A DNA stretch of 64,000 nt from Chloroflexota bacterium (GTDB lineage Bacteria; Chloroflexota; Anaerolineae; DTLA01): positions 55,955 through 119,954 of the forward strand of contig JADBJK010000015.1 of NCBI GenBank assembly GCA_014874485.1. Reading direction: 5' to 3'. Made by a program: the position numbers and the translations under genes. Shown here piece after piece: positions 10,318 to 57,273 of this stretch. The notes under the pieces were generated by a model. The model saw only the letters and a list, made by a program, of their open reading frames with translations. It ran no database searches and was not told where the DNA came from. Within the stretch, counting starts at the first letter, position 1. Every line of letters starts with the position of its first letter.

Positions 10318-10469
10318 TGTCATTGCGAGCGAAGCGAAGCAATCTCACGCCCTATCTGTCATGCTGAGCGAAGCGAAGCATCTCGGTTGGCGAGATTCTT
10401 CGCGGCTGGGCCGCTCAGAATGACAATCTACCGGGATTGCTTCGGGCGCTGCGCGCCCTCGCAATGACA
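10318..10469. mobile_element. MITE-like element, copy 1 (152 bp; 12-bp terminal inverted repeats TGTCATTGCGAG / CTCGCAATGACA)
   Basis: The termini are a perfect inverted pair. Inside is a nested inverted pair GTCATGCTGAG...CTCAGAATGAC, and the same architecture recurs at four or more other loci in this window. Confidence 0.7.
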
Positions 10470-10521
10470 AACTATCAAGAATCCCTGTGGCAAAATACGA
10501 GGCGGATAGCCGAGGAATCCC

Positions 10522-10563
10522 GCAGACCTCCGAGGGCCTTCCCGACCTCGGAGGTCTGCTTTT
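10522..10563 (+). terminator. Rho-independent terminator downstream of hoxH
   Basis: A 14-bp perfect stem (GCAGACCTCCGAGG...CCTCGGAGGTCTGC) is followed by a CTTTT tract. Confidence 0.6.
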
Positions 10564-10589
10564 GACGCCCTGGCCCCGTGGGATACAAT
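10562..10589 (+). promoter_or_regulatory. Sigma70-like promoter for the hoxW-hyp operon (TTGACG-N16-TACAAT)
   Basis: The hexamers lie immediately after the terminator T-tract, 58 nt upstream of hoxW. Confidence 0.4.
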
Positions 10590-10646
10590 AGCCAGGACAA
10601 CGCAAAGACGCGCTGAGACGTTCACGGGCGCGCTGGGACTGGACGG

Positions 10647-11132
10647 ATGAGACGGACCCTGGTCATCGGATACGGGAACCCCTACCGCCGCGACGACGGC
10701 GTGGCGTTGCACGTCGCCAACCTCTTGCGGGCGGAGCAGGGGCTGCGACCTCTGGCCCTGGACGAAGACGGCCTGGATGCGTGCGGCCATCCCCTGGACA
10801 CGGTGGTGCTCCACCAGTTGCTGCCCGAAATCGCGCCCATGCTGGCCGACTACGACCTGGTCGTGTTCGTGGATGCCCACACCGGCGTAATACCGGATGA
10901 CGTCCGCGTGCTGCCCGTGCAGGAGGAGTACGGCTTCCAGGCGGTTACCCATCACATGAGCCCGGGCATGATGCTGGCGCTGGCGCGGGCAGCGCGGGGT
11001 CGGGCGCCGGATGCCGCGCTGGTCTCCATTCGGGGCGAGGACTTTGATTTCGGCGAGGGCCTGTCGGCGGGGTGCAAGGCTCGCGCGGATGCGGCCGCCC
11101 GCGCCATCCTGGACATGGCCGGCAGGGAGTAG
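10647..11132 (+). CDS. hoxW: Hydrogenase maturation endopeptidase (HoxW/HycI family)
   Basis: The product has the GYGNPYRRDDGVALHV signature (GxGNxxxxDDGxG) and is 161 aa long. Confidence 0.85.
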   Translation: MRRTLVIGYGNPYRRDDGVALHVANLLRAEQGLRPLALDEDGLDACGHPLDTVVLHQLLPEIAPMLADYDLVVFVDAHTGVIPDDVRVLPVQEEYGFQAVTHHMSPGMMLALARAARGRAPDAALVSIRGEDFDFGEGLSAGCKARADAAARAILDMAGRE

Positions 11133-11138
11133 GTCGCC

Positions 11139-11480
11139 GTGCACGAACTGCCCGTTACCGAGCAAATCCTCAAGGTCGTGCTGGATCACGCGCGCAAGGC
11201 GGAGGCGCACCGCGTCGTGCACGTCAACCTCGTCATCGGCGACCTGACCACGTTCGTGGACGAGAGCATCCAATTCTACTTTGATTTCCTGTCGCGCGGG
11301 ACCGAGGCGGAGGGCGCGACCCTGCACATCCGCCGCATTCCGGCCCGCGTGCGGTGTCATGCCTGCGGCGGCGAGTTCGCGCCCGACGGCGTGGACTGGC
11401 GCTGCCCCCACTGCGGCGGCCTGGGCGGGGAAGTGCTCGCGGGCCGCGAGTCGTACATAGAGAGCATTGAGGTGGAATAG
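11139..11480 (+). CDS. hypA: Hydrogenase nickel insertion protein HypA
   Basis: The N-terminal MHE motif and the Zn site CHACGG...CPHCGG are present; the product is 113 aa. Confidence 0.85.
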   Translation: MHELPVTEQILKVVLDHARKAEAHRVVHVNLVIGDLTTFVDESIQFYFDFLSRGTEAEGATLHIRRIPARVRCHACGGEFAPDGVDWRCPHCGGLGGEVLAGRESYIESIEVE

Positions 11481-11485
11481 CCCCC

Positions 11486-12151
11486 ATGAAGAAAGTGGAA
11501 GTCGTAACCGACATCATGAGTGCCAACGACCAGATCGCCCAGGAGAACGCCGAAACCCTCCGGGCGCATGGCATCCTCACGGTGAACCTGATGGCATCGC
11601 CCGGGGCCGGCAAGACCAGCCTCATCCTGGAGACCGCGCGGGCGCTTGACGGCCGCCTGCGCCTGGGCGTGATTGAGGGCGACGTGGCCTCGCGCATTGA
11701 CGCGGACAAGGTCGCCGCCGCGGGGATTCCCGTGGTGCAGATCAACACCGGCGGCGCGTGCCACCTGGACGCGCCCATGATCCGCCAGGCGCTCCGCGCG
11801 CTCCCGCTGGACGAGATAGACCTGCTCATCGTGGAAAACGTCGGCAACCTCATCTGCCCGGTGGAGTTTCGCCTGGGCGAGACGCTGCGCGTCATGATCG
11901 CCAGCGTGCCCGAAGGCCACGACAAGCCCTACAAGTACCCGGGCATCTTCACGGCAGTGGAGGCCGTCGTCATCAACAAGATGGATTTGGCCCCCTACGT
12001 GGACTTTGACCTGGGCGCGCTGCACGAGGCCATACGGGGCATGAACCCGCGCGCCGAAATCTTTGAGGTCTCCTGCCGCACGGGCGAAGGCATTGGCCGA
12101 TGGGCCGAATGGCTCTGGGCGCAGTGGCAGGCGTATCGGCCGGCGAAGTAG
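11486..12151 (+). CDS. hypB: Hydrogenase nickel incorporation GTPase HypB
   Basis: The product has a P-loop (ASPGAGKTS) and a CH metal motif (GGACHLD), and is 221 aa long. Confidence 0.85.
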   Translation: MKKVEVVTDIMSANDQIAQENAETLRAHGILTVNLMASPGAGKTSLILETARALDGRLRLGVIEGDVASRIDADKVAAAGIPVVQINTGGACHLDAPMIRQALRALPLDEIDLLIVENVGNLICPVEFRLGETLRVMIASVPEGHDKPYKYPGIFTAVEAVVINKMDLAPYVDFDLGALHEAIRGMNPRAEIFEVSCRTGEGIGRWAEWLWAQWQAYRPAK

Positions 12152-12172
12152 GGGGAGAGGGCGGTCCCGGAC

Positions 12173-14560
12173 ATGGCCTCGGTTGTCGCCAATCGGTTCA
12201 AGGTAACCGGCGTGGTGCAGGGGGTGGGTTTCCGCCCCTTTGTGTACGGCCTGGCGGTGGGGCTGGGGCTGCGCGGCTGGGTCATCAACACGTCGTCGGG
12301 CGTGGTGATTGAGGTGGAAGGCCCGCCCGATGCCCTGGATGCCTTCGCGCGCGACCTGGTGGCGAAGGCCCCGCCCGTGGCGCGCATAGAGACCGTGCAG
12401 CGGGAGGAGATTCCGCCCAACGGCTGGGAGCGGTTTGAAATCCGCGAGAGCCGGGCCGAGGCTGGGTACGTGCTCATCTCGCCGGACATCGCCACCTGCC
12501 CCGAATGCCTGCGCGAACTGTTTGATCCCAACGACCGCCGCTACCGCTATCCGTTCATCAACTGCACCAACTGCGGGCCGCGTTTCACCATCATCGCCGA
12601 CGTGCCTTACGACCGGCCCCTGACCACCATGGCCGCGTTCCAAATGTGCCCGGAATGCCAGGCCGAGTACGATGACCCGCTGAACCGCCGATTCCACGCG
12701 CAGCCCAACGCCTGCCCCGTGTGCGGGCCGCGGGTGTGGCTTGTGCCCGCTTCGGCGCAGGACGCCGAGGCGCTGACCCCGCCCGCGGGCGACCCGGCCA
12801 ACGCCGAGGTGCTCGCCGAGGCAGCGCGCTTGCTGCGGGGAGGCGCCATCCTCGCCATCAAGGGCCTGGGCGGGTTCCACCTGGCCTGCGATGCGACCAA
12901 CCCCGACGCAGTGCGCACGCTGCGGGAACGCAAGCGCCGCCCGGCGAAGCCCTTGGCGGTGATGATGGCCTCGCTGGACGAGGTGCGCCAGCATTGCGAG
13001 ATCACGCCCGACGAGGAGGCGCTCCTGACCTCGCGCCAGTGCCCCATCGTCCTGCTGGAGTGGAAGCGCGACTCCACAGTTGTGGAGGAGGTGGCGCCGA
13101 ACAACCGCTACCTGGGCGTGATGCTCCCCTACACGCCGCTGCACCATATTCTGCTCCGCGACGCCGGGCGGCCGCTGGTCATGACGAGCGGCAACCTGTC
13201 GGAGGAGCCTATCGCGCAGGACAACGAGGAGGCCTGGCGTCGGCTGCGCGGCCTGGCCGATTGGTTTCTGCTCCACAACCGGGCCATCTACGCCCGCTAC
13301 GATGACAGCGTCTGGTTTGTGCCGCGCGTCCCCGACGGCAAGGCGGGTGCCGAGTCGGTGCCCCAGCCGCTGCGCCGCTCGCGGGGCTACGCGCCGTATC
13401 CCGTGCGCCTGCCCTTCCGCGCCCGCACGGTGCTGGCCACCGGCCCGGAACTCAAGAACACCTTCTGCATCACCCGCGACGAGCATGCCTTCGTTAGCCC
13501 CCACATCGGCGACATGGAGAACCTGGAGACGCTGGAGCACTACGAGACGGCCATGGGCCTCTACGAGCGGCTGTTCCGCCTGCGGCCTGATGCGATAGCC
13601 TGCGACCTGCACCCCGACTACCTGGCGACGCGCTACGCCCACGAGCGGGCCGAGCGGGAGCGCCTGCCCCTCATCGGCGTGCAGCACCACCACGCCCACA
13701 TCGCGGCGTGCATGGTGGACAACGGTATCACCGAGCCGGTCATCGGCGTGGCCCTGGACGGCACGGGGTACGGCCTGGACGGGCGAATCTGGGGCGGCGA
13801 GTGGCTGGTCGCCGACCTGCGCGGGTTCCGCCGCGCCGCGTGGCTGGAGCCGCTCCCGCTCCCCGGCGGCGACGCGGGCATCCGCAACCCGTGCCGCATC
13901 GCGTATGCGTACCTGCATGCGCTGTTCGGCGAAGTCCCCGCGCTGCCCTTCCTGGCGCAGATGGACGAGGCCGAAATCGCCGCCGTGCAGCGGCAGGTGG
14001 AGCGCGGCCTGAACACCGTTCTGACCACGTCCTGCGGCCGGCTGTTTGACGCCGTCGCAGCGATGGCCGGCGGGCGGGGCCGCGTTACCTACGAGGCGCA
14101 GGCGGCCATTGAGATGGAGATGGCATCGGAGGGCGACGAGGGCGACCCCTACGGGTACTTCTTCCGCTGGGCGGAGCCGCTCGCCTGGGGGAACACGGAT
14201 GCCTTGCCCCCGCTGGCCTGCGCCTTTGAGGTCGCCCTGAAGCCGCTGCTGGCGGGCGTCGTGCGCGATGTCCAGGCCGGGCGGATGCTGGGCGAAGTGG
14301 GCGGGCGCTTCCACCGCACGCTGGCGAACATGATCGCCGACCTGTGCTGCATGATCGCGCAGGGCACCGGCCTCGCGACGGTGGCCCTGTCGGGCGGGTG
14401 CTTCCAGAACCGCCTGCTGCTGGAACAGTCGGTGGGCGAACTCCGACGGCGCGGGCTGCGCGTGCTGCTGCACCGCCAGGTTCCGGCCAACGACGGCGGC
14501 GTGTCGCTGGGCCAGGCGGCCATCGGCCACTTTGCCCTTGAGGAGGGGCGGGCGCGATGA
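12173..14560 (+). CDS. hypF: Carbamoyltransferase HypF
   Basis: It contains an acylphosphatase domain (VQGVGFRPFVY), two CxxC...CxxC zinc fingers, and YrdC and Kae1-like domains, for 795 aa in total. Confidence 0.9.
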   Translation: MASVVANRFKVTGVVQGVGFRPFVYGLAVGLGLRGWVINTSSGVVIEVEGPPDALDAFARDLVAKAPPVARIETVQREEIPPNGWERFEIRESRAEAGYVLISPDIATCPECLRELFDPNDRRYRYPFINCTNCGPRFTIIADVPYDRPLTTMAAFQMCPECQAEYDDPLNRRFHAQPNACPVCGPRVWLVPASAQDAEALTPPAGDPANAEVLAEAARLLRGGAILAIKGLGGFHLACDATNPDAVRTLRERKRRPAKPLAVMMASLDEVRQHCEITPDEEALLTSRQCPIVLLEWKRDSTVVEEVAPNNRYLGVMLPYTPLHHILLRDAGRPLVMTSGNLSEEPIAQDNEEAWRRLRGLADWFLLHNRAIYARYDDSVWFVPRVPDGKAGAESVPQPLRRSRGYAPYPVRLPFRARTVLATGPELKNTFCITRDEHAFVSPHIGDMENLETLEHYETAMGLYERLFRLRPDAIACDLHPDYLATRYAHERAERERLPLIGVQHHHAHIAACMVDNGITEPVIGVALDGTGYGLDGRIWGGEWLVADLRGFRRAAWLEPLPLPGGDAGIRNPCRIAYAYLHALFGEVPALPFLAQMDEAEIAAVQRQVERGLNTVLTTSCGRLFDAVAAMAGGRGRVTYEAQAAIEMEMASEGDEGDPYGYFFRWAEPLAWGNTDALPPLACAFEVALKPLLAGVVRDVQAGRMLGEVGGRFHRTLANMIADLCCMIAQGTGLATVALSGGCFQNRLLLEQSVGELRRRGLRVLLHRQVPANDGGVSLGQAAIGHFALEEGRAR

Positions 14561-15654
14561 AGTTCATAGACGAGTTCCGCGACCCTCGGTTGGCCCGCTC
14601 GCTGGTGGAGCGCATCCGCCAGCGCGCGCGCAAGCCCATGCGCCTGATGGAGTTCTGCGGCGGACACACCCACGCCATCCTGCGATTCGGCATTCGCCAG
14701 GCGCTGCCGCCGACGGTGGAGATGCTGTCGGGGCCCGGGTGCCCGGTGTGCGTTACCGCCGCCGCGGACCTGGACCGGGCCATCGCCATGGCGGGTGTGC
14801 CGGGAGTCATCCTGGCCACCTTCGGCGACATGATCCGCGTGCCGGGGAGCCGCGAGAGCCTGCAGCAGGCCAAAGCGCGGGGCGCGGACATCCGCATCGT
14901 GTACTCGCCGCTGGACGCCGTGCGGCTGGCGGAGCAGAACCCGTCGCGGCCCGTGATCTTCCTGGGCGTGGGGTTTGAGACGACGGCCCCGGGCGTGGCG
15001 GCTTCCGTCCTGGACGCGCACGCGCGCGGGGTTGGCAACTACTACGTACTGTGCCTGCACAAACTCACGCCGCCCGCTACCCGCGCCATCTTGGATTCGG
15101 GCGAGGTCAACCTGTCGGGCGTCCTGGGGCCGGGACACGTTACCACCGTCATCGGGACGAAGGCGTGGGAGTTCCTGCCGCGCGAGTACGGCGTGCCCAT
15201 CGCCATCGCGGGATTTGAGCCGCTGGACATCCTGCGGGGCATCTCCCTGCTGGTGGAGCGGATTGCGGAGGGCGAGGCGCGCGTGGACAATGCCTATTCC
15301 CGCAGCGTGCTCCCGGAAGGGAATCGGGCGGCCCAGGACATGATGGCCCGCGTGTTTGAGGTGGCCGACGCCGAGTGGCGCGGGCTGGGGACGATACCGG
15401 CCAGCGGCCTGTGCATACGGCCGGAGTTCCAGGCCCACGACGCGGCGCGCGCGTTTCCGGTGGACGTGCCGCCGTCGCGGGAACCGCCAGGATGCCGCTG
15501 TGGGGACGTCTTGCGGGGCGTCTTGGCTCCGCCTTCGTGCCCGTTGTTCGGCAGAGCGTGCACGCCGGAGCACCCCGTCGGCCCGTGCATGGTGTCGGCC
15601 GAGGGGGCCTGCGCCGCCTACTATCAGTTTGGAGATGCGGGACATGAAGGATGA
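14557..15654 (+). CDS. hypD: Hydrogenase maturation factor HypD
   Basis: The motifs EFCGGHTHAI and GPGCPVCV are present. The start overlaps the hypF stop (ATGA). Confidence 0.85.
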   Translation: MKFIDEFRDPRLARSLVERIRQRARKPMRLMEFCGGHTHAILRFGIRQALPPTVEMLSGPGCPVCVTAAADLDRAIAMAGVPGVILATFGDMIRVPGSRESLQQAKARGADIRIVYSPLDAVRLAEQNPSRPVIFLGVGFETTAPGVAASVLDAHARGVGNYYVLCLHKLTPPATRAILDSGEVNLSGVLGPGHVTTVIGTKAWEFLPREYGVPIAIAGFEPLDILRGISLLVERIAEGEARVDNAYSRSVLPEGNRAAQDMMARVFEVADAEWRGLGTIPASGLCIRPEFQAHDAARAFPVDVPPSREPPGCRCGDVLRGVLAPPSCPLFGRACTPEHPVGPCMVSAEGACAAYYQFGDAGHEG

Positions 15655-16651
15655 GGCCATCCTGCTCGCCCACGGCAGCGGCGGGCGGCTGACGCACGAA
15701 CTGATCCGCGACCTGTTCCTGAGCGAGTTGTCCAATCCGTTCCTGGACGCGCTGGGCGACGCCGCTGTCCTGCCGCCGCAGAGCGGCCGCCTGGCCCTGA
15801 CCACCGACTCCTACGTGGTTCGGCCGGTCTTCTTCCCTGGCGGGGACATCGGCAAACTGGCCGTGTGCGGCACGGTCAACGACCTGAGCATGGTGGGCGC
15901 GCGCCCGCTTTTCCTGACCATCGGGTTCATCCTGGAGGAAGGGCTGCCCTTCGCCGACCTGCGGCGCATCGTGCGCTCGGCGGCGCAGACGGCCCGCGAG
16001 GCTGGCGTCCAGATTGTGGCCGGCGACACGAAGGTGGTGGACCGGGGCAGCGCCGACCAGGTGTTCATCAACACGGCGGGCGTGGGCCTCATTCCGGAGG
16101 GGGTCTCCCTGTCGCCGAGCGCCATCCGTCCGGGCGACGTCGTCCTCGTGTCGGGGACCGTGGGCGACCACGGGATTGCCGTCATGGCCCAGCGGGAAGG
16201 GTTGGGGCTGAGCACGTCGCTGGCCAGCGACTGCGCCCCCCTGAACGGTCTGGCGCAGGCCGTGGTGGCGTGCGGCGGCGTGCGGGTCATGCGCGACCCC
16301 ACGCGCGGCGGCCTGGCGACCACGCTGGTGGAACTGGCGCAGGCAGGCGGCGTGGGCCTAGAGATTGACGAGAGCGCCGTGCCCGTCAAGGATGCCGTGC
16401 GGGGCGCGTGCGAACTCCTGGGCCTGGACCCGCTGTACGTCGCCAACGAGGGCAAGTTGGTGGCGGTGGTGGCAGCCGAGGCGGCGGACGCTGCCCTCGC
16501 CGCGATGCAGGCGCACCCGCTGGGCCGCGATGCCCGCATCATCGGGCGCGCCACCGATGGGCATCCGGGGCGGGTCGTCCTGAAGACGCTGCTGGGCGTG
16601 TCCAGGGTTGTAGAGATGCTGACGGGCGAGCAGTTGCCCAGGATATGCTGA
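15635..16651 (+). CDS. hypE: Hydrogenase maturation factor HypE (start at internal ATG 15635 or 15644; the upstream part of the track ORF is an artefact overlapping hypD)
   Basis: The product is an AIR-synthase-like fold (MKDEAILLAHGSGG...) that overlaps the hypD stop. Confidence 0.8.
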   Translation: MRDMKDEAILLAHGSGGRLTHELIRDLFLSELSNPFLDALGDAAVLPPQSGRLALTTDSYVVRPVFFPGGDIGKLAVCGTVNDLSMVGARPLFLTIGFILEEGLPFADLRRIVRSAAQTAREAGVQIVAGDTKVVDRGSADQVFINTAGVGLIPEGVSLSPSAIRPGDVVLVSGTVGDHGIAVMAQREGLGLSTSLASDCAPLNGLAQAVVACGGVRVMRDPTRGGLATTLVELAQAGGVGLEIDESAVPVKDAVRGACELLGLDPLYVANEGKLVAVVAAEAADAALAAMQAHPLGRDARIIGRATDGHPGRVVLKTLLGVSRVVEMLTGEQLPRIC

Positions 16652-16673
16652 GGCCCACAGGCCCGCGCTCACC

Positions 16674-16702
16674 TTGACGCGGCCCGCATTTGGTCGTATA
16701 AT
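16674..16702 (+). promoter_or_regulatory. Strong sigma70-like promoter (TTGACG-N17-TATAAT) for the fds operon
   Basis: The consensus hexamers have ideal spacing, about 190 nt upstream of fdsG. Confidence 0.55.
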
Positions 16703-16890
16703 GCGTTTACTTCGCCATTGCATTGGAGAGAACCCGCCATGTTGTGCAACGCAGCCAGCATGATGTGTGGAAAGCATCCTCATCCGTTCGGCATCCCCAC
16801 ACCTGGCTCCAGTTCGGCGTCCATATCCAGCGGCTGCCCGTTGCCCATGTGCGGCCGCTGCTGCAGAATCGCCCCTGAAAGGAGGTCGCC

Positions 16891-19210: not shown

Positions 19211-19241
19211 CCACGGTTCTCGGATGGAAGGAGACGCAGAC

Positions 19242-29452: not shown

Positions 29453-30082
29453 TGTCATTGCGAGGGGCGAAGCCCCGAAGCAATCCCTGGGACGTGAGAT
29501 TGCTTCGCTTCGCTCGCAATGACGGAGAAGGCACTTGCGACGCACCTCCGAGGTGCGTCGCAAGTGGGCCGACTGGATTGCTTCGCTTCGCTCGCAATGA
29601 CAGCAAAGGGGTTGTCATTGCGAGGGGCGCAGCCCCGAAGCAATCCCCGGGGCGCGAGATGGCTTCGCTTCGCTCGCAATGACGGAGAATGCACGTGCGA
29701 CGCACCTCCGAGGTGCGTCGCACGTGGGCCGACTGGATTGCTTCGCTTCGCTCGCAATGACAGCAAAGGGGTTGTCATTGCGAGGGGCGCAGCCCCGAAG
29801 CAATCCCCGGGGCGCGAGATGGCTTCGCTTCGCTCGCAATGACGGAGAATGCACGTGCGACGCACCTCCGAGGTGCGTCGCACGTGGGCCGACTGGATTG
29901 CTTCGCTTCGCTCGCAATGACAGCAAAGGGGTTGTCATTGCGAGGGGCGCAGCCCCGAAGCAATCCCCGGGGTGCGAGATTGCTTCGCTTCGCTCGCAAT
30001 GACGGAGAAGACACTTGCGACGCACCTCCGAGGTGCGTCGCAAGTGGGCCGACTGGATTGCTTCGCTTCGCTCGCAATGACA
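29453..30082. repeat. Tandem array of about four 160-bp composite units built from MITE-family modules (each unit has TGTCATTGCGAG termini and a 13-bp-stem hairpin CTTGCGACGCACCTC-CGAG-GTGCGTCGCAAG)
   Basis: The unit period is exactly 160 bp (29610/29770/29930). Units are near-identical and there are no unique spacers. Confidence 0.8.
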
Positions 30083-30102
30083 GGTGCCGCGCTGCATCCC
30101 CA

Positions 30103-39824: not shown

Positions 39825-39972
39825 TTCTGGCTGCAAAGACGCCGGTTGGCCTCCGGGCGTCTTGACGCGGTAAGGCTTGCTTCGGGGGATTGCCGCGAGG
39901 CGATTCCCCGAAGCACCCAAAAACGACGGATTTCGCAGTACCTACCAGTTGACCACAGAGGAAAGTACCCGT

Positions 39973-40126
39973 TGTCATTGTGAGCGAAGCGAAGCAATCT
40001 CACGCTCCGTCTGTCATGCTGAGCGCAGCGGAGCATCTCGGTTAACGAGATTCTTCGGCGCTTCGTGCCTCAGTAGGGACAATTCATGAATTGTCCCTAC
40101 GGGCGCTGCGCGCCCTCGCAATGACA
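39973..40126. mobile_element. MITE-like element, copy 2 (154 bp, with an internal perfect palindrome GGGACAATTCATGAATTGTCCC)
   Basis: It has the same TIRs and module order as copy 1. Confidence 0.7.
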
Positions 40127-40177
40127 ACCAGTAAGAAGCCCTGTGGTGCAGTACCTAATCCAGAAGAGAGGTGGCAC

Positions 40178-41578
40178 ATGAAACCCAAAACCCTGATCTG
40201 GGTGGTGGGTTTGGTCGGGATCACGGTGCTGATCCTGGCGGCCTGTGGAGCCGCGGCGACGCCTACGCCGACCACAGCGCCCACGAAAGTACCGCCGATC
40301 AACACGCCTGTACCACCGCCCACCAACACCCCGGCACCGACGAACACTCCGGTGCCCCCGACACCCACGCCCATCCCGAGCGCGGACAACTGCGTGGCGT
40401 GTCATACCAACGCGGAAACCCTGCAGAAACTCGCCGAGACCAAGAAGACCGGCTCCGCCGAAACCGAAGGCGAGGGTTGAGCGGGCGAGTTGCCTCCGTT
40501 GGAGGCATGGGAAAAGGTCTTCATCGGCAACGACACCTTCCTCAAGGACGTCCACAACACGCCCAACTGCATCGGCTGCCACGGCGGCCAGCCGGATACG
40601 AATGACAAGGCCGTTGCCCACCAGGGCGTGGTGCGCGACCCGTCAGCCGATCCCCAGGGTGTCTGCGCCAACTGCCACGGCGACATCGCCAAGACCTACG
40701 CCACTTCGCTGCACTACACCATCAGGGGGTACTACACCATCCTCGGCGAGCGCGGGTTTGACTTCAACGACCCGGCCAAGGCCGAAATCTTCAACCGCCA
40801 CTGCACCAGTTGCCATGCGACCTGCGGCCAGTGCCACATCTCGCGGCCCACGTCGGCCGACGGCGGCCTCGTGAAGGATCACCAGGTCAAGAGCATCGTC
40901 TCGCTCAGCGACACGTGCCTGGGCTGCCACGGCGGGCGCGTCGGCCCCGAGTTCATGGGCAAGAACGCGGGCGTGCCCGGCGACGTCCACTGGACCAAGG
41001 GCGTCAACTGCTTCAAGTGCCACAATATGACGCAGTTCCACGGCGACGGCACGCAGTACGCCCACCGGTACGACGGCAAGCCTGTGCCTTCGTGCCTGGA
41101 TTGCCACCCGGACGCCGCGCCCGGCAAGGGCCAGGTCATGCAGCACAACATCCACGGCGACAAACTGGACTGCCGCGTGTGCCACTCGGCCGGGGCCTAC
41201 AAGTCCTGCTGGAACTGCCACGTCGGCCTAGACAAGGAAGGTCTGCCGTATCGCAAACTTGACCCGTCGGTGATGACCTTCAAGATCGGCAAGAACCCGA
41301 ACCCGACGCCCGACCGACCGTGGGAGTACGTCCTGGTGCGGCACATCCCGGTGCCCGCGGACATCTTCGGGTACTACGGCGACAACATGCTGCCCAACTG
41401 GGCCGCCGTGCCCACCTGGAAGTACGCCACCGTGCACAACATCCAGAAGATCACGCCGCAGAACCAGGACTGCAAGAACTGCCACGGCCATCCGGAACTG
41501 TTCCTGACGGAGAAGGACGTGGATCCGGCGGAACTGGAAGCAAACCGCGCCGTGATCGTTACGGAGATTCCGAAGTAG
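40178..41578 (+). CDS. Multiheme c-type cytochrome lipoprotein (~11 CxxCH motifs) interrupted by a single in-frame TGA at 40478..40480: either selenocysteine/readthrough or a disrupted gene
   Basis: Track ORFs 40091..40480 and 40490..41578 share a frame and are separated only by the TGA. The upstream part supplies a signal peptide with a lipobox (LAAC), a PT linker and the first heme site (CVACH). The downstream part has ten CxxCH motifs but no signal peptide of its own. A hairpin TGCCTCC-GTT-GGAGGCA begins 11 nt after the TGA. Confidence 0.55.
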
Positions 41579-42066
41579 TCGGTTTCACCGCAGAGAACGC
41601 AGAGACCGCAGAGGGAGACGAGAAATCGGGCTCCTTTGCGGTCTCTGTCATGAAATTGCTGCCCGCACTGCCTGGCTTGTCATTGCGAGGGCGCGTAGCA
41701 GTCGGTTTCACCACAGAGAACGCAGAGACCGCAGAGGGAGACGAGAAATCGGGCTCCTTTGCGGTCTCTGTCATGAGCTTGCTGCCACACTGCCCGGCTT
41801 GTCATTGCGAGGGCGCGAAGCAGTCGGTTTCACCACAGAGAACGCAGAGACCGCAGAGGGAGACGAGAAATCGGGCTCCTCTGCGGTCTCTGTCATGAGC
41901 TTGCTGCCACACTGCCCGGCTTGTCATTGCGAGGGCGCGAAGCAGTCGGTTTCACCACAGAGAACGCAGAGACCGCAGCGGGAGACGAGAAATCGGACCC
42001 CCTTTGCGGTCTCTGTCATGAAATTGCTGCCCTCATGCGACGCACCTCGCAGGTGCATCGCACGTT
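41579..42066. repeat. Tandem array of four ~120-bp units of a second repeat family (GTTTCACCRCAGAGAACGCAGAGACCGCAGAG... ending in TGTCATTGCGAGGGCGCG)
   Basis: The period is about 120-121 bp (41579/41700/41820/41940). Each unit contains an 11-bp-stem hairpin CAGAGACCGCA...TGCGGTCTCTG. Confidence 0.75.
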
Positions 42067-44504: not shown

Positions 44505-44868
44505 TTACGTTTCACCGCAGAGGGCGCGGAGACCGCAGAGATCAAGGTTTCTAGAACTTGACCGCAGAGTAAATTGTCTGGTGTCATTGCGGGCCAAGCA
44601 TCTCGCGGCCCACGTGCGAGGCACCTCCGAGGTGCGTCCCACGTGCCCCTGCTGGGATTGCTTCGGGCGCTGCGCGCCCTCGCAATGACACCTCATCTGT
44701 CATGCTGAGCGAAGCGAAGCATCTCGGTTGACGAGATTCTTCGGCGCTTTGCGCCTCAGAATGACGGTCTAGTGAGCGAAGCAGTCTCCTGCTTGCGGGC
44801 GATTGTTTCACCGCACCTGTGCAAGCATCCCCTAGCACCCTCTGCGTTCTCTGCGACTCTGCGGTGAG
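44505..44868. repeat. Composite repeat block: a rearranged MITE copy (44582..44766) flanked by second-family modules
   Basis: It contains GTGTCATTGCG..., the hairpin module GCGAGGCACCTCCGAGGTGCGTC, the GTCATGCTGAGCGAAGCGAAGCATCTCGGTTGACGAGATTCTTCGGCGC module, and GTTTCACCGCAGAG modules. Confidence 0.65.
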
Positions 44869-44870
44869 GC

Positions 44871-45563: not shown

Positions 45564-45641
<78 letters not shown>

Positions 45642-45831
45642 CGAATAGCGAAAGGCGCTGAACAGGAGTAGTAGGCCATCCCTGCAGAGAGGCGGGCGCT
45701 CGGTGCAAGCCCGCCGACGCGCCGACGGGGAGCGCACAAGGTCGAACTCGCCTGGGAGCCGCGGCGGCGAACGCCAGTAGTCGCCGACGGGTGGCGGACG
45801 TTACCCGCCGTAGAGTGGGCCAGGACAGCAC

Positions 45832-45904
45832 GGGGCTGTAGCTCAGTGGGAGAGCACTTGTCTGGCAGACAAGGGGTCAGGGGTTCAAGTCCCCTCAGCT
45901 CCAC
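45832..45904 (+). tRNA. tRNA-Ala (anticodon GGC)
   Basis: It has a cloverleaf with G3:U70, the anticodon loop CUGGCAG and a T-loop TTCAAGT. Confidence 0.8.
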
Positions 45905-46024
45905 CTTCACCCCACCATCAACCCTGGCCAAGCAGGGTGGTACCGCGGAACTCCTCCGTCCCTGGACGGGGGAGTTTTGTTTATCTGGCGAGGGTTCGGG
46001 GGTTTACACAGATTCGGCTCTGTG

Positions 46025-46413
46025 TGTCATTGCGAGCGAAGCGAAGCAATCTTACGCTCCGTTTGTCATGCTGAGCGAAGCGAAGCATCTCGGTTGACGA
46101 GATTCTTCGGCGCTCCGCGCCTCAGAATGACGGGGCGGTGGCTGTCATGCTGAGCGAAGCGAAGCATCTCGGTTGACGAGATTCTTCGGCGCTCCGCGCC
46201 TCAGAATGACGGGGCGGTGGCTGTCATGCTGAGCGAAGCGAAGCATCTCGGTTGACGAGATTCTTCGGCGCTCCGCGCCTCAGAATGACGGGGCGGTGGC
46301 TGTCATGCTGAGCGAAGCGAAGCATCTCGGTTGACGAGATTCTTCGGCGCTCCGCGCCTCAGAATGACAGCCTACCGAGATTGCTTCGGGCGCTCCGCGC
46401 CCTCGCAATGACA
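46025..46413. mobile_element. MITE-like element, copy 3, expanded by a 4x tandem amplification of its internal 79-bp module (46064..46379)
   Basis: The TIRs TGTCATTGCGAG...CTCGCAATGACA are intact. The internal unit GTCATGCTGAGCGAAGCGAAGCATCTCGGTTGACGAGATTCTTCGGCGCTCCGCGCCTCAGAATGACGGGGCGGTGGCT is repeated four times. Confidence 0.75.
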
Positions 46414-46466
46414 ACGAGCGACAGCGTTCGGAACCGAATCCAGATTCGGCTGACGGGAGAGAAGCG

Positions 46467-49393: not shown

Positions 49394-49765
49394 ATGTGGA
49401 AATCGCTCGCGCTGATTTTCGTTTCGGTGCTGATCGGCGTGTTCGGTCAGTTGAGCCTGAAGACCGGAATGACCCAGGTGGGCCGCATTGACGCGCAGGC
49501 CCTATCGCAGCCGGTGCAATTGCTCCTGCGCATCTTCACCACGCCCATCATCCTGGCCGGCATCGCGCTGTACATCGTCGGCACGCTCATCTGGCTCGTG
49601 GTGCTGTCGCGCCTGGACTTGAGTTTCGCCTATCCGCTGGTGGCGACGACCTACGTGTTCACGCCGCTCCTGGCCCATCTCCTGCTCAAGGAGCCGATTC
49701 CCGCCATGCGGTGGGTGGGGATTGCCCTCATCCTCGTCGGCGTGTACATCGTCGCCAGAGCCTGA
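49394..49765 (+). CDS. Small EamA/SMR-like four-helix membrane transporter (ArnE/ArnF-like)
   Basis: It is about 123 aa with four TM helices. The start was chosen at an internal ATG. Confidence 0.5.
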   Translation: MWKSLALIFVSVLIGVFGQLSLKTGMTQVGRIDAQALSQPVQLLLRIFTTPIILAGIALYIVGTLIWLVVLSRLDLSFAYPLVATTYVFTPLLAHLLLKEPIPAMRWVGIALILVGVYIVARA

Positions 49766-49794
49766 GCCGCAACGGTGCAGCCGCGGAGGCGCGC

Positions 49795-52335: not shown

Positions 52336-52346
52336 GGCAGGTCGCC

Positions 52347-53477
52347 ATGCGCGTGCTGATGATCTCCAAGGCGTGCCTGGTGGGCATCTACCAGCGGAAG
52401 TTGGAGGAACTGGCCCGCCTGCCCGACGTAACGCTGAAGGTGCTGGTACCGCCGTCGTGGAACGACCGGGGCGGGCGCGTGCCGCTGGAGCGCGTGCACA
52501 CCGAGGGGTACGACCTGGAGGCCATCCCCATCGCCTTCAACGGGAACTACCACCTGCATTTCTACCCCGACCTGGGCCGCTACGTGCGCGCCTTCCGCCC
52601 GGACATCGTGCACATAGACGAGGAGCCGTACAACCTGGCCACGTGGCAGGCGATGCGACTGGCGCGGGCGGTCGGCGCGAAGGCGCTGTTCTTCACGTGG
52701 CAGAATCTCCTGCGGGGGTATCCGCCCCCGTTTCGGTGGATGGAGACGTACAATTACCGCCATGCCGCCTATGCCATTGCGGGGAATCGGGAAGCGGTGG
52801 CCGTCCTGCGCGCCAAGGGGTTCGCGGGGCCGGTGGCCGTCATCCCGCAGTTCGGCGTGGACACCGACCGCTTCGCGCCCGCCGACGGCATGCCCGACCC
52901 CGCCGCGCCGTTCACCGTGGGGTTCATCGGGCGGATGGTGCCGGAGAAGGGCGTGGGCCTGCTGCTGGACGCGATGGCCGGTCTGGACGGGGACTGGCGG
53001 CTGATGTACCTGGGCGACGGCCCGGCCCGCGCCGAGTTGGAGGCCCGCGTCCGGGCGATGGGGCTGGCCTCGCGGGTGGCCTTCCGGTCGCGCGTCCCCT
53101 CGGTGGAGATGCCCGCCTACCTGCGGCGGCTGCATGTGCTGGCGCTTCCCTCGCTCACGCGGCCCAACTGGAAGGAGCAGTTCGGGCGTGTGCTCATTGA
53201 GGCGATGGCGTGCGGCGTGCCCGTCGTCGGCTCCAGCAGCGGCGAGATTCCCAACGTCATCGGGGACGCGGGGCTGGTGTTCCCGGAGGGGGACGCGGAG
53301 GCGCTGCGGGCGGCGCTGGCGCGGCTGCGCGATGACCGCGCCCTGTGGCAGCGCCTGGCGGCGGCGGGGCGGGCGCGCGTCCTGGCCGAGTTCACCCACG
53401 CGCAGGTGGCGCAGAAGACGTACCGCGTGTATCAGTCTGTAGGGGCGATTCATGAATCGCCCCTACTGGCAAGGTGA
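52347..53477 (+). CDS. GT4-family glycosyltransferase
   Basis: It has a GT-B fold with the EX7E region (EQFGRVLIEAMACGVPVV). Confidence 0.75.
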   Translation: MRVLMISKACLVGIYQRKLEELARLPDVTLKVLVPPSWNDRGGRVPLERVHTEGYDLEAIPIAFNGNYHLHFYPDLGRYVRAFRPDIVHIDEEPYNLATWQAMRLARAVGAKALFFTWQNLLRGYPPPFRWMETYNYRHAAYAIAGNREAVAVLRAKGFAGPVAVIPQFGVDTDRFAPADGMPDPAAPFTVGFIGRMVPEKGVGLLLDAMAGLDGDWRLMYLGDGPARAELEARVRAMGLASRVAFRSRVPSVEMPAYLRRLHVLALPSLTRPNWKEQFGRVLIEAMACGVPVVGSSSGEIPNVIGDAGLVFPEGDAEALRAALARLRDDRALWQRLAAAGRARVLAEFTHAQVAQKTYRVYQSVGAIHESPLLAR

Positions 53478-54475
53478 TAGTCCTCGCCCCGCGCGACCCC
53501 CGGCCCCCGCCCGCGGCTGAAGCCGTCGGGCTGAAAGGGCCAAGCCCTGCGGGCTATCCCAGCCCCACCGGGGCTTCGCCCGTTCAGCGCGGGGGTTTAG
53601 CCCCGCGCGGGCATGCGCCCCTGCCCTCGCCCGCGGCTGAAGCCGTCGGGCTGAAAGGGCCAAGCCCTGCGGGCTATCCCAGCCCCACCGGGGCTTTGCC
53701 CATTCAGCGCGGGGGTTTAGCCCCGCGCGGTCCTGCCCCGCCCTCTCCCGCGCGCCCCTGCGCCCGCCCGCGGCTGAAGCCGTCGGGCTGAAAGGGCCAA
53801 GCCCTGCGGGCTATCCCAGCCCCACCGGGGCTTCGCCCGTTCAGCGCGGGGGTTTAGCCCCGCGCGGGCATGCGCCCCTGCCCTCGCCCGCGGCTGAAGC
53901 CGTCGGGCTGAAAGGGCCAAGCCCTGCGGGCTGCCCGTAGGGCCCAGCACGCTGCGCCCAGCCCGAACGGGGTTTTGCCCATTCAGCGCGGGGGTTTAGC
54001 CCCGCGCGGCCGTGCGCCCCTGCCCTCGCCCGCGGCTGAAGCCGTCGGGCTGAAAGGGCCAAGCCCTGCGGGCTATCCCAGCCCCACCGGGGCTTTGCCC
54101 ATTCAGCGCGGGGGTTTAGCCCCGCGCGGTCCTGCCCCGCCCTCTCCCGCGCGCCCCTGCCCGCGGCTGAAGCCGTCGGGCTGAAAGGGCCAAGCCCTGC
54201 GGGCTGCCCGTAGGGCCCAGCACGCTGCGCCCAGCCCGAACGGGGTTTTGCCCATTCAGCGCGGGGGTTTAGCCCCGCGCGGCCGTGCGCCCCTGCCCTC
54301 GCCCGCGGCTGAAGCCGTCGGGCTGAAAGGGCCAAGCCCTGCGGGCTATCCCAGCCCCACCGGGGCTTTGCCCGTTCAGCGCGGGGGTTCAGCCCCGCGC
54401 GGCCCTGCCCCTTTCGCGCCTTTCGTGCCCTTTCGCGCATTTCGCGATCCAAACGCCCTGCCCGCGCGTTTGTAC
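53478..54475. repeat. About 1 kb of GC-rich tandem palindromic repeats (third family; ~7 units of 120-145 bp sharing the core GGCTGAAGCCGTCGGGCTGAAAGGGCCAAGCCCTGCGGGCT and the hairpin GCGCGGGGGTTTAGCCCCGCGC)
   Basis: Cores recur at about 53516, 53637, 53772, 53890, 54031, 54166 and 54307, with two alternating variant sub-modules between them. Confidence 0.75.
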
Positions 54476-54498
54476 TCCAGGCGCGGGGCGGCTATAAT
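54469..54498 (+). promoter_or_regulatory. Promoter TTGTAC-N18-TATAAT upstream of the second GT4 gene
   Basis: A perfect -10 lies immediately after the repeat array. Confidence 0.35.
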
Positions 54499-54548
54499 GC
54501 GGGCATGCATCACATCCCAAGCGGGCATCCGGAGGTGGGGCAGCGCCT

Positions 54549-55679
54549 GTGCGAATCGGCCTGAACGCTCAACTCTTGTCCCTGTCCGACAGTTACCGCG
54601 GGGCAGGCATCGCGCACTACATCCACCAAACGCTCATGCACCTGCCGCGTGCGGGTGCGCACACGTACATCGCATTCGTGGCAGACAAGGCATTCCGTGC
54701 GGACGGCATGGAGGTCGTCCCTTCGCGCCTGCCCACATCCCGCCCGCCCGTGCGCATCCTCTGGGAGCAGACCTTCCTGCCGGTGGAACTGGCCCGCCGC
54801 GGCATAGACTTGCTCCACGCCATGGCGTTCGTTATGCCGGTGTTCTCCGCGGTGCCCTCGGTGGTTACCGTGTACGACGTGTCGTTCGCCCTGTTCCCGG
54901 AGAGTTTCCGCCCGTTCAACCGCTGGTACCTGGCCACCATGACGCGGCGCTCGGTGCGCAAGGCCCGCGCCGTGCTCGCCATCTCCCAGAACACGGCCAA
55001 CGACCTGTGCCGCCTGTGGGGCATCCCGCGCGACAAGATTCACCTGGCGTACTGCGGCGTGGACGACATCTTCCGTCCCGTGCCAGGGGGCGAGGTGCAG
55101 GCGTTCCGCGAGGCCAGGGGGCTGCCCGCGCAGTACATCCTGTTCGTGGGGACGCTGGAGCCGCGCAAGAACGTGGTGCGCCTTGTGGAGGCGTTCGCAC
55201 TCCTGAAGAAGCAGGGCCTGCCGCACAAGCTCGTCCTGGCGGGCGGCAGGGGCTGGATGTACGAACCCATCTTCGCGGCGGTGGAGCGGCTGGGGCTGGA
55301 GTCCGAGGTCCTCTTCCCCGGGTTCGTGCCGCGGCAGGAACTGCCTTTGTGGTATAATGGGGCGGCGGTCTTCGTGTATCCGTCGCTGTACGAGGGGTTT
55401 GGCCTGGGGCCGCTGGAGGCGATGGCATGCGGGACGCCCGTCGTGGTGTCGGACCGCGCCTCGCTGCCCGAAGTGGTGGGAGACGCGGGGCTGACCGTGC
55501 CGCCAGACGACGTATCGGCCCTCGCCGAGGCGATGGCGGCCATCCTGCGCGAGCCGATGCAGGCAGCCCGACTGCGCGAACGGGGCCTTCGCCGCGCCCG
55601 CGAGTTCACATGGGAGCGCACGGCCCAGGCCACCGTGCAGGCATACGAAAGCGTCCTGTCGGAGAGACGGCATGTCTAA
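54549..55679 (+). CDS. GT4-family glycosyltransferase
   Basis: It has a GTG start and the motif EGFGLGPLEAMACGTPVV. Confidence 0.75.
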   Translation: MRIGLNAQLLSLSDSYRGAGIAHYIHQTLMHLPRAGAHTYIAFVADKAFRADGMEVVPSRLPTSRPPVRILWEQTFLPVELARRGIDLLHAMAFVMPVFSAVPSVVTVYDVSFALFPESFRPFNRWYLATMTRRSVRKARAVLAISQNTANDLCRLWGIPRDKIHLAYCGVDDIFRPVPGGEVQAFREARGLPAQYILFVGTLEPRKNVVRLVEAFALLKKQGLPHKLVLAGGRGWMYEPIFAAVERLGLESEVLFPGFVPRQELPLWYNGAAVFVYPSLYEGFGLGPLEAMACGTPVVVSDRASLPEVVGDAGLTVPPDDVSALAEAMAAILREPMQAARLRERGLRRAREFTWERTAQATVQAYESVLSERRHV

Positions 55680-57099
55680 GCGGTATCGGCGTGTTGTGGC
55701 CTTGCTCACGGCCCTAGGCGACATCGTGCTCATCAACGTGGCTTTCGCGCTGGCCTACTTCGTCCGCTATCAGTTGGAGTGGCCGCGCCCGGTCATTGAC
55801 GAGTACTACGTCCCGTACCAAACGTTTATCCCTATCGCCGCGCTGTTCACGGGGGTGCTGCTGCTCACCTTCCTCCTGGAGAAGGTGTACGAGGTGCGTC
55901 GCGGTCGTCCCTGGCTGGACGAGGTGTACGCCATTCTCAACGGCACGACCAACGGGGTCATCCTGCTCATCGTGTTCTTCTTCGTCTCGGGCTCGCCGCT
56001 GTACTCCCGCCTGATCTTCCTCTACGCGGCGGTGGCGGTGGTGGTGGTGCTGGGGCTGGGCCGCGCCGTGCGCAACTGGATTCTGAACGCATTGCGCAAG
56101 AAGGGCATCGGCGTGGATCGGGTGCTGGTGGTGGGCGCGGGCGAGATGGGCCGCATGCTCATGCGCAACATCGTCGCCCAGCCCGAACTGGGCTACCGCA
56201 TCGTGGGCTACGTGGACGACGACCCGAAGAAGGCCAACGGGGCCGTGGGCCGATTCGCGGGCCTGGGCACGGTGGACGACTTGCCGCGGATTCTCGCCGC
56301 GGGGAACGTGGACGAGGTCATCGTAACGCTGCCGTGGATGTACCACCGCAAGATTCTGCGCATCGTCAACGAGTGTGCGCGGTCGGACATCCGCGCCCGC
56401 ATCGTGCCCGACCTGTTCCAGATGTCGGTGCGGCGGCTGGATTTGGACAACCTGAACGGCCTGCCGCTCTTGTCGGTGCAGGAGCCGCGCATCAGCGCTT
56501 CGGGGCAAATCGCCAAGCGCGTGCTGGATGTCGTCGGCGCGGCCGTTGTGTTGATCATCACGTCCCCGTTCATGGCGCTGGCCGCGCTGGCCATACGGCT
56601 GGATTCTCCTGGGCCCATCCTGTTCCGCCAGGAGCGGGTGGGGCGCGGCGAGTCGCGGTTCACCCTGTACAAGTTCCGCACCATGTACAAGGACGCCGAG
56701 GAGCAACTGGAGACCCTCAAGGCGCGCAACGAGGCGTCGGGGCCGCTGTTCAAGATGAAGAACGACCCGCGCATCACGCGGGTGGGGCGCATCCTGCGGC
56801 GGACGAGCATAGACGAGTTGCCGCAGTTGTACAACGTGCTGAAGGGGGACATGAGCCTGGTGGGGCCGCGCCCGCCCCTGCCGCGGGAGGTAGAGCAGTA
56901 CCAGGACTGGCACCGCAGGCGGCTGGCCGTGGCCCCAGGTATCACGGGCCTCTGGCAGGTGAGCGGCCGCAGCGACCTGACCTTTGACGAGATGGTGCTC
57001 CTGGACCTGTACTACATTGAGAACTGGTCGCTGTTCTTGGATTTCAAGATTCTGTTGCGGACGATTCCGCAGGTCATCTTTGCGAGGGGGGCGTATTAG
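55672..57099 (+). CDS. Polyprenyl-phosphate sugar phosphotransferase (WbaP/bacterial sugar transferase family) with CoA-binding-like domain
   Basis: It has N-terminal TM helices and a C-terminal catalytic domain (DELPQLYNVLKGDMSLVGPRP). Confidence 0.8.
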   Translation: MSKRYRRVVALLTALGDIVLINVAFALAYFVRYQLEWPRPVIDEYYVPYQTFIPIAALFTGVLLLTFLLEKVYEVRRGRPWLDEVYAILNGTTNGVILLIVFFFVSGSPLYSRLIFLYAAVAVVVVLGLGRAVRNWILNALRKKGIGVDRVLVVGAGEMGRMLMRNIVAQPELGYRIVGYVDDDPKKANGAVGRFAGLGTVDDLPRILAAGNVDEVIVTLPWMYHRKILRIVNECARSDIRARIVPDLFQMSVRRLDLDNLNGLPLLSVQEPRISASGQIAKRVLDVVGAAVVLIITSPFMALAALAIRLDSPGPILFRQERVGRGESRFTLYKFRTMYKDAEEQLETLKARNEASGPLFKMKNDPRITRVGRILRRTSIDELPQLYNVLKGDMSLVGPRPPLPREVEQYQDWHRRRLAVAPGITGLWQVSGRSDLTFDEMVLLDLYYIENWSLFLDFKILLRTIPQVIFARGAY

Positions 57100-57121
57100 C
57101 ACTTGACTACCGAGAAGATTG

Positions 57122-57273
57122 TGTCATTGCGAGCGAAGCGAAGCAATCTCGCGCTCCATGTGTCATGATGAGCGGAGCGAAGCATCTCGTTGACGAGATT
57201 CTTCGGCGCTTCGCGCCTCAGAATGACAGGCTGCCGGGATTGTTTTCGGGCGCTGGGCATTCTCGCGATGACA
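57122..57273. mobile_element. MITE-like element, copy 4 (3' TIR degenerate: CTCGCGATGACA)
   Basis: It has the same module order as copies 1-3. Confidence 0.65.

Follow-up and report, generated by a model that had tools for sequence, protein, structure and literature searches.

A stretch of 64,000 nucleotides from a Chloroflexota bacterium (contig JADBJK010000015.1, positions 55,955 to 119,954; hereafter the window) contains a family of short repeats that a first-pass annotation had described as resembling a MITE (a miniature type of transposable element bounded by inverted repeats), with perfect 12-bp terminal inverted repeats (TIRs), TGTCATTGCGAG. The family is not a classical MITE. It is a mosaic of self-folding units of the type associated with Ssn nucleases, in a variant with a bipartite stem, and is organized like REPINs (doublets of repetitive extragenic palindromes, or REPs, that form hairpins) and bacterial interspersed mosaic elements (BIMEs). 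We think it probable, with a likelihood of roughly 0.7, that they belong, as a variant, to the class of Ssn-related hairpin repeats (NTS/SRM, which correspond to the CGTC/TGTC-tagged REPs). The observations behind this are the architecture and covariation of the units, the association of their types with ssn homologues in other genomes, and insertion polymorphism among close relatives.

Architecture and covariation of the units

The '12-bp TIR' is the outer part of a hairpin unit of 26-34 nt. All units follow one plan: a (T/C)GTC tag leads into a 5-bp stem (AT-xyz), next come a GA/GAA internal loop and a mini-hairpin that is GC-rich and variable, and the return stem and a C complete the unit. 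The left arm reads TGTCATTGCGAG-CGAAGCG-AAGCAATC and the right arm, on the other strand, TGTCATTGCGAG-GGCGCGCAGCGCC-CGAAGCAATC. The nested pair described in the first-pass annotation keeps to this plan but has another stem (GTCATGCTGAG...AAGCATC and GTCATTCTGAG...AAGAATC). Outer (ATTGC) and nested (ATGCT/ATTCT) pairs represent two subtypes of a single design.

With at most one mismatch, TGTCATTGCGAG occurs at 25 sites in the 64 kb, compared with 0.41 expected, and this number was reached in none of 100 shuffled sequences. A strict search for the complete design returned 30 units in the window and 0-3 (about 1) in shuffles. When the hairpin was searched for without reference to its flanks, 33 examples were found, and 31 of these had GTC before them and C after them. 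The C at position +1 after the stem is thus present in 31 of 33 window hairpins; it was also present in 292 of 392 hairpins in the ssn loci described below.

The two arms of the nested pair mismatch at two positions (G/T, ATGCT versus ATTCT) and both mismatches are compensated within each arm. The conserved structure is therefore the single-arm hairpin and not a long hairpin formed between arms. In a non-circular test using independent loci, 269 of 380 5' halves (GTCAT-xyz-GA) had their own complementary 3' half within 60 nt, while foreign triplets used as a control gave 6.0 +/- 2.2; at least 10 triplet classes contribute to the 269. The ends are consequently not simple TIRs, as had been proposed, but units that fold on themselves through a covarying internal stem. 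Strong hairpins had also been proposed, and this proved correct: folded as single-stranded DNA (ssDNA), positions 10319-10468 give -48.7 kcal/mol (z = -7.2), and arms with long mini-hairpins fold as drawn.

These results bear on the interpretation as a classical MITE, that is, a deletion derivative of an insertion sequence (IS) whose DDE transposase would act in trans on the TGTCATTGCGAG TIRs and generate a target-site duplication of fixed length. Such an element would be expected to be small and to have inverted ends, as is the case here, but the covariation indicates that the structure under selection is the hairpin of a single unit. We consider this interpretation very improbable, and further evidence on it is given in the sections that follow.

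Distribution in other genomes

The repeats form a dispersed family that is not restricted to the window: the exact 27-mer TGTCATTGCGAGCGAAGCGAAGCAATC is present in at least 117 loci among species-representative genomes. The matches listed cover more than 15 phyla and include Chloroflexota, Alpha- and Deltaproteobacteria (Bradyrhizobium, Afipia), Cyanobacteria (Calothrix, Nostoc), Planctomycetota, Nitrospirota, Spirochaetota, Fibrobacter, Bacteroidales, bacteria of the candidate phyla radiation (CPR), Omnitrophota and one metagenome-assembled genome (MAG) of a member of the Thermoplasmata. A blastn search of the PLSDB plasmids with copy 1 (see below) gave no match, and literature matches to the repeat sequence strings were limited to chance primers.

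In about two-thirds of the listed loci the 27-mer forms the left arm of a hairpin element of 60-140 nt with a variable centre, and the mini-hairpin inserted in the right arm varies with compensatory changes. About one-third are solo arms. Arms also occur as inside-out pairs (right arm, approximately 10 nt, left arm) and in direct tandem. These arrangements are behaviour typical of REPs and BIMEs and not of transposon ends, which again argues against a MITE.

Two of the loci, from the Thermoplasmata archaeon MAG (L074) and from Candidatus Curtissbacteria (L055), carry ATTGC hairpin elements in complete form, including the exact 27-mer of bacteria, which may reflect horizontal spread or binning contamination. 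Another (L020, JARYMK010000068.1, positions 1826-2031, from the same closely related Anaerolineae MAG as L201, discussed below) contains six ATTGC units of 27 nt arranged head to tail with a period of 34-37 nt. This layout has a superficial likeness to a short CRISPR-like array.

Association with ssn genes

The first-pass annotation had suggested a search for a cognate transposase with matching TIRs. None was found adjoining or between units in the 117 repeat-bearing loci, which represent a limited sample of approximately 0.78 Mb, and all-versus-all clustering of their open reading frames (ORFs) did not reveal a recurrent neighbour. Long intervals bounded by inverted units ('>...<') were considered as autonomous elements and rejected; they contain genes for exonuclease VII, an ABC ATPase, ThiC and similar housekeeping functions. 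A tblastn search of the 117 loci with Escherichia coli YhbQ identified no GIY-YIG gene, this probe being too distant.

The only gene bounded by units in these loci is that of L093 (Hymenobacter aerophilus). It encodes a 94-aa GIY-YIG protein (PF01541, E = 5e-16) and has two ATTGC arms upstream and three inverted arms downstream. A gene-carrying counterpart with matching ends does exist in other genomes, but its gene specifies an Ssn-family GIY-YIG nuclease of about 94 aa and not a transposase. The absence of a transposase and of a recurrent neighbour, the housekeeping content of the long intervals and the nature of this one gene are all contrary to the idea of a MITE.

We tested the association systematically using 80 metagenomic loci encoding homologues of the L093 protein. 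ATTGC-type arms occur at 3.7 per kb within 200 nt of the ssn homologue and at 0.42 per kb farther away. For units of any stem class the densities are 6.3 and 0.76 per kb, and for approximately 72 of the 80 homologues such a unit is located no farther than 250 nt away. In 31 of the 80 loci the nearest units have the layout '> gene <' (unit, gene, inverted unit), typically 15-100 nt from the ORF, and the two units that flank one homologue are usually of the same stem class. The classes found include both window subtypes (ATTGC, ATTCT, ATCCT, ATCCC, ATTCC, ATTTC, ATGCT and others). Similarity is slightly higher between proteins that share a flanking stem class (57.6% versus 54.6% identity; 0 of 2000 permutations). 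The effect, though clear in statistical terms, is small and may simply reflect shared ancestry.

The L093-type family is 43.5% identical (E = 1e-14) to a Neisseria gonorrhoeae homologue that is surrounded by canonical NTS repeats. An annotated GIY-YIG gene flanked by ATTCT/ATCCT units is also present on a Planktothrix plasmid (protein WP_083616022.1). There (L204, Planktothrix agardhii, NZ_LR882964.1, 17347-20616), gene and units lie between an MmeI-type restriction-modification gene and a DISARM drmA helicase gene, a defence-island context. Many Ssn-like proteins are known only from contigs of 500-2000 bp, which is consistent with breakage of metagenome assemblies at the flanking repeats.

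Comparison with known repeat families

The Neisseria repeat NTS (CGTCATTCCCGCGMAVGCGGGAATCYRG) is the target of SsnA, a 94-aa single-domain GIY-YIG nuclease (cd10448) whose binding to NTS is restricted to ssDNA and whose cut lies a few nucleotides upstream (Chenal 2025, PMC11893778). Three nucleotides before the palindrome and a C after it are critical, the C being the most critical base for SsnA binding. SRMs are located near 71% of ssn homologues and are found on both sides of 42%. The same authors likened the NTS-ssnA-NTS layout to an IS or to a RAYT/REP system (RAYT, REP-associated tyrosine transposase) and left mobility, and any role outside Neisseria, open (PMC11893778).

The window units share with NTS and SRM the (T/C)GTC tag, a palindrome that starts with AT and the C directly 3' to it; they are similarly hairpins of 20-50 nt present in many copies, with a repeat-gene-repeat layout at genes for GIY-YIG proteins of about 94 aa in other genomes and a wide phylogenetic spread. 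The GTC of the tag and the C after the stem, which correspond to the critical NTS positions, are nearly invariant in the window. One difference concerns the stem: in place of a single stem of 8-9 bp, the window units have 5 bp that lead into a GA/GAA internal loop and then into another, variable hairpin. The Anaerolineae (Chloroflexota) host, nesting two to three layers deep, tandem amplification and insertion polymorphism are further differences.

CGTC-tagged REPs were defined earlier (Di Nocera 2013, PMC3733652). Their tag is often TGTC, their stems start with AT and they occur mostly as inverted dimers between unidirectional or convergent ORFs. They include dRS3 of Neisseria and RPE-4/6 of Rickettsia, occur in Bradyrhizobium and were listed in five phyla, the Chloroflexi being represented there only by GTAG repeats; they never flank RAYT genes and have no dedicated transposase (PMC3733652). 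The window units agree in tag, stem start and arrangement, and the exact 27-mer is also found in Bradyrhizobium. They differ in having 5 bp, an internal loop and a second stem of 2-6 bp where CGTC REPs have a stem of 8-9 bp and a loop of 4-5 nt, and their tail is mostly CTC or CCC instead of CCA (CCA tails were seen in alphaproteobacterial loci).

The behaviour of the family is also that of the REPIN/RAYT and BIME systems of Pseudomonas and E. coli: hairpin singlets that form inverted doublets and mosaic clusters, non-autonomous copies, a single small flanked gene, location between genes that are co-directional or convergent, and a lack of regular target duplications. Mobilization by a RAYT (a Y1 HUH tyrosine transposase), as in those organisms, would be in keeping with this. 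However, the tag is (T/C)GTC and not GTAG, the enzyme encoded between units is a GIY-YIG nuclease and not a Y1 HUH transposase, and repeats of the CGTC type never flank RAYT genes (PMC3733652), although no Y1-specific scan of the window or the loci was made. In addition, REPIN sequences are lineage-specific and vertically inherited, whereas an identical 27-mer of the window type spans many phyla. We regard a RAYT as a most improbable agent.

Finally, bacterial MITEs such as Correia/NEMIS, Nezha and RUP resemble the window elements in size (100-400 bp), inverted ends, intergenic location, insertion polymorphism and nesting. In the present case no DDE parent element or fixed abutting duplication was found and the ends are self-sufficient hairpin units that also occur alone.

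Repeat copies in the window

The sites identified are listed below; > and < indicate the orientation of a unit, < being inverted.

10318..10469, composite copy 1: outer ATTGC units at 10318-10344 (>) and 10435-10469 (<); nested ATGCT unit at 10357-10382 (>) and ATTCT unit at 10394-10425 (<); further outer layer formed by ACCACAGAG at 10297-10305 and CCCTGTGG at approximately 10483-10490

29453..30083, tandem array: 160 bp x 3.9, 97% matches, 12 units

39945..40147, insertion 2: encloses the copy 39973-40126

41571..42031, tandem array: 122 bp x 3.8, in which a truncated ATTGC left unit is joined to a CACCGCAGAG-type palindrome (module D); three truncated left units (TGTCATTGCGAGGGCGCG) at 41678, 41800 and 41922

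44582..44766, rearranged copy: degenerate ATTGC left unit, palindrome C, ATTGC right unit at 44656-44690 and a separate ATGCT/ATTCT pair at 44698-44766

46020..46440, insertion 3: encloses the copy 46025-46413, with an ATTGC left unit at 46025-46051 and an ATTGC right unit at 46379-46413

57122..57273, composite copy 4: an ATTGC unit at 57122-57148, a nested pair at 57161-57228 and, on the right, an ATTGC unit that has decayed and ends TCTCGCGATGACA

All five copies reported in the first-pass annotation were recovered at the positions it gave; the two tandem arrays at 29453-30083 and 41571-42031 were absent from its list. The perfect 12-bp pair exists only at 10318/10469 and 46025/46413. In the other three copies one 12-mer is imperfect: the left one at 39973 (TGTCATTGTGAG), the right one at 57122 (TGTCATCGCGAG) and the left one at 44582 (TGTCATTGCGGG). 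The modular order that all full copies were thought to share holds for those at 10318, 46025 and 57122 but not for that at 39973, in which the right half has been exchanged for a 28-nt palindrome of the GTAG type. As to the recurrent pseudo-peptide, the exact string MSLRALRALAMTT does not occur; LRALRALAMT is encoded four times and CHCERSEAI eight times.

Copy 1 begins 28 nt past the stop codon of a gene for the large subunit of a NiFe hydrogenase. The repeat unit of the 29453-30083 array, which lies between convergent amino-acid kinase and LPG-synthase-like genes, is composed of an ATTGC hairpin pair, palindrome C (GCGACGCACCTCCGAGGTGCGTCGC) and an additional ATTGC unit. Insertion 2 consists of three nested layers (ACCACAGAG...CCCTGTGGT outermost, an ATTGC pair in the middle and an ATGCT unit innermost). 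A D-type hairpin situated between a copZ-like gene and copA (minus strand) holds the rearranged copy in its loop. In insertion 3 the nested ATGCT/ATTCT pair has become a tandem of 79 bp x 3.9 (46064-46368) with 100% identical copies, and the ends carry 5 nt and 27 nt of extra sequence beyond the units. Copy 4 is the most degenerate of the composites and is situated between co-directional sugar-transferase and M20-peptidase genes. Copy number is nearly equal in the three tandem arrays (3.9, 3.8 and 3.9) despite units of 160, 122 and 79 bp; this may be a coincidence.

A gene map based on GC content at third codon positions placed every site between genes, as had been proposed. These genes are co-directional or convergent, except that one copy is within the copZ-copA operon and one in the leuS leader; none of the sites separates a divergent gene pair. 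According to Pfam, the adjoining genes are ordinary chromosomal ones (NiFe hydrogenase, amino-acid kinase, rhodanese, multihaem cytochrome, CopA, LeuRS, sugar transferase and M20 peptidase).

Insertion polymorphism and footprint

Orthologous loci of relatives, all named members of which are Anaerolineae or Chloroflexota, were recovered through LeuRS and CopA. The NCBI set contains a match of 100% identity to the LeuRS of the window. The leuS gene of the window is 89-92% identical to theirs at the DNA level (80% at third codon positions for the closest relative); two of the loci, L198 and L199, carry an identical LeuRS protein. The 421-nt block at 46020-46440 in the leuS leader is absent from L198, L199, L200 and L207, where the empty sites read ...CAGATTCGG(C/T)(T/A)^(A/G)A(C/T)(G/A)GGAGA...ATG (caret, the break in the empty site); in all, empty sites were seen here at five loci that represent four distinct relatives. 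In the window the block is bounded by an 11-nt direct repeat, CAGATTCGGCT (46009-46019 and 46441-46451). At the rhodanese site the 203-nt block at 39945-40147 is absent from five relatives (L201, L202, L203, L207 and L208) and is bounded by a 10-nt direct repeat, GCAGTACCTA (39935-39944 and 40148-40157). Two copies are therefore true insertions, lacking at the orthologous sites of several close relatives.

Two further sites also differ. Between copZ and copA a basal CACCGCAGAG-type hairpin is common to all relatives, with Ssn-type units in its loop only in the window. At the cytochrome/CopA site (41571-42031), L202 has one D unit without an Ssn-type unit, L201 has D with a full ATTGC/ATTCT composite and the window has the truncated arm in tandem. 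Compared with the 30 strict units of the window, approximately 97 kb from five related lineages contain none, L201 contains one and L020 eight. Identity among the four composites is 85-90%, and the junctions between their layers are homologous; the composite has therefore been copied as a block. Together these are clear signs that the units were recently inserted as blocks, nested and tandemly amplified in one Anaerolineae lineage. The alternative offered in the first-pass annotation, REP-like structural repeats that are not mobile, comes closer to the architecture, but its premise of immobility is contradicted by the empty sites.

Intergenic insertions missing in relatives, and direct repeats of 10 and 11 nt around two of them, would also be expected of a MITE. 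Such repeats are present at two of the six window sites. In the same test, direct repeats of at least 10 nt occur at 5.6% of random sites, making the 10- and 11-nt pair unlikely to arise by chance. They do not abut the ends of the elements, however, and for 81 complete ATTGC elements elsewhere the lengths of flanking direct repeats match those of a random control. Abutting duplications of fixed length, by which a DDE-type MITE is recognized, are therefore not characteristic of the family.

At both insertions the extra segment on the right contains an inverted copy of sequence from the left flank (ACCACAGAG/CCCTGTGGT at one and GATTCGG/CCGAATC at the other). The footprint at 39935-40157 and 46009-46451 is predicted by none of the mechanisms considered here.

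Possible roles in transcripts

A terminator function had been suggested for the hairpins, but a simple scan predicts no T-tract terminator within any copy. At the gathering threshold, Rfam identified two tRNAs only, and at E <= 1 it gave nothing credible in the elements. The insertion upstream of leuS has a T-box-like terminator on one side and the leuS ATG on the other and is therefore tolerated in the 5' untranslated region. Effects of the hairpins on transcripts are possible.

The T-box leader itself was matched at 45649-45966 (Rfam E-value mode, 68.4 bits, below the gathering value of 93, E = 3e-14). The match spans 318 nt for a model of 219 positions and includes a full tRNA gene (45832-45903), with another tRNA just before it (45564-45636). 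The order tRNA, leader, tRNA, GGTGGTACCGCGG, terminator is conserved in L198, L200 and L207.

It could be argued that the repeats are structural or regulatory hairpins selected by the host, that recombination and duplication alone have spread them without any dedicated enzyme, and that the linkage to ssn is incidental or serves the regulation of ssn itself. The hairpins are indeed very stable, they are positioned after genes and inside operons, they have amplified locally in tandem at three sites, and the inverted left-flank copy at two insertions is suggestive of copying during replication or repair. On the other hand, without a T tract they are not canonical intrinsic terminators and they belong to no Rfam family. 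An identical 27-mer in more than 15 phyla (among the matches listed) is hard to explain by host selection alone, and the near-invariant GTC and C match determinants of Ssn recognition; moreover, NTS in the form of RNA is not bound by SsnA (PMC11893778). Taking these points together, we judge an explanation by host selection to be improbable.

A model for the spread of the units

By analogy with Neisseria SsnA, a unit folded on ssDNA would be bound by the GIY-YIG nuclease of about 94 aa and nicked a few nucleotides 5' of its tag. The units are paired in inverted orientation to give REPIN-like doublets. ATGCT/ATTCT doublets, placed in the loop of ATTGC doublets, and both of these within other palindromes, form BIME-like mosaics able to amplify in tandem. 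An Ssn enzyme of the source genome would presumably recognize the units, and the nicks that it makes could drive their spread.

Several results weigh against assigning the repeats to the Ssn-related class. The published SRM string, HGTCWYN(0-2)YYVSBRHN(0-5)WNVSBRGN(0-2)RNCYNB, has no site in the window (0-3 in shuffles), and none of the four unit types fits it, while an NTS control does. Because this string is unmatched, and the stem and loop described in 2013 differ from those found here, we treat the window units as a structural variant. Arms with the minimal GCGAAGC core are no more stable than shuffled sequences when calculated with nearest-neighbour DNA parameters. Both direct repeats lie 5-28 nt outside the units, and the known activity of Ssn predicts neither these boundaries nor the repeats. 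No ssn gene was found in the 64-kb window. The role demonstrated for SsnA in Neisseria is restriction of transforming ssDNA and, to our knowledge, no experiment has shown transposition driven by Ssn.

A more far-reaching interpretation is that the inverted doublets are true non-autonomous transposons, with the Ssn protein of about 94 aa as a GIY-YIG transposase acting on ssDNA and the unit-ssn-unit cassette as the autonomous form. We find this conceivable but doubtful. If it were correct, GIY-YIG enzymes would constitute a new class of prokaryotic transposase beside the DDE, HUH, serine and tyrosine enzymes. It could also explain how an identical 27-mer extends from Chloroflexota to Bradyrhizobium, cyanobacteria, CPR bacteria and an archaeal MAG, and the flanking repeats of 10-11 nt, with the inverted flank copies at two insertions, would be the footprint of the mechanism.

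Other palindromes and repeats

The window contains additional palindromic families. One is based on a 9-mer (CACCGCAGAG / ACGCAGAG, paired with CTCTGCGGT) and is found at 41571-42031, 44505-44570, 44840-44870 and 63355-63500 as well as in L198, L201 and L202; in relatives other 9-mers are sometimes used (for example, CACAAAGGCACAAAGACAC). The loop of this palindrome is an insertion site for Ssn-type units, and ACCACAGAG/CCCTGTGG form the outermost layer of copies 1 and 2. Palindrome C (GCGACGCACCTCCGAGGTGCGTCGC, 25-40 nt) is located at 29537, 29697, 29857, 30017, 42037, 44616 and 63414, alone or inside other modules, and also at orthologous sites of L198, L201 and L202. In copy 2 the inner right half has given way to the perfect 28-nt palindrome GTAGGGACAATTCATGAATTGTCCCTAC (40073-40100), which carries a GTAG tag as RAYT-type REPs do and occurs once in the window. 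A separate GC-rich array at 53498-54409 (periods of approximately 120-273 bp, up to 98% matches, motifs GGCTGAAGCCGTCGGGCTGAAAGGGCCAAGCCCTGCGGGC and CATTCAGCGCGGGGGTTTAGCCCCGCGCGG) is unrelated in sequence to the Ssn-type units.

Implications

Papers of 2013 and 2025 already described this class of repeat and its link to Ssn, and the family itself is not new. Nevertheless, the bipartite subtype (GTCAT-xyz-GAG...GAA-z'y'x'-ATC) escapes the SRM pattern and yet is the commonest type around the ssn genes sampled here. Censuses based on SRM may therefore be strong underestimates. The repeats also generate spurious ORFs (CHCERSEAI and LRALRALAMT) and probably break assemblies. The filled and empty sites in close relatives are direct evidence for the gain of blocks on a short timescale, which the Ssn study had left as a hypothesis, and the nesting and tandem amplification provide concrete substrates for testing how Ssn activity could cause the repeats to spread.

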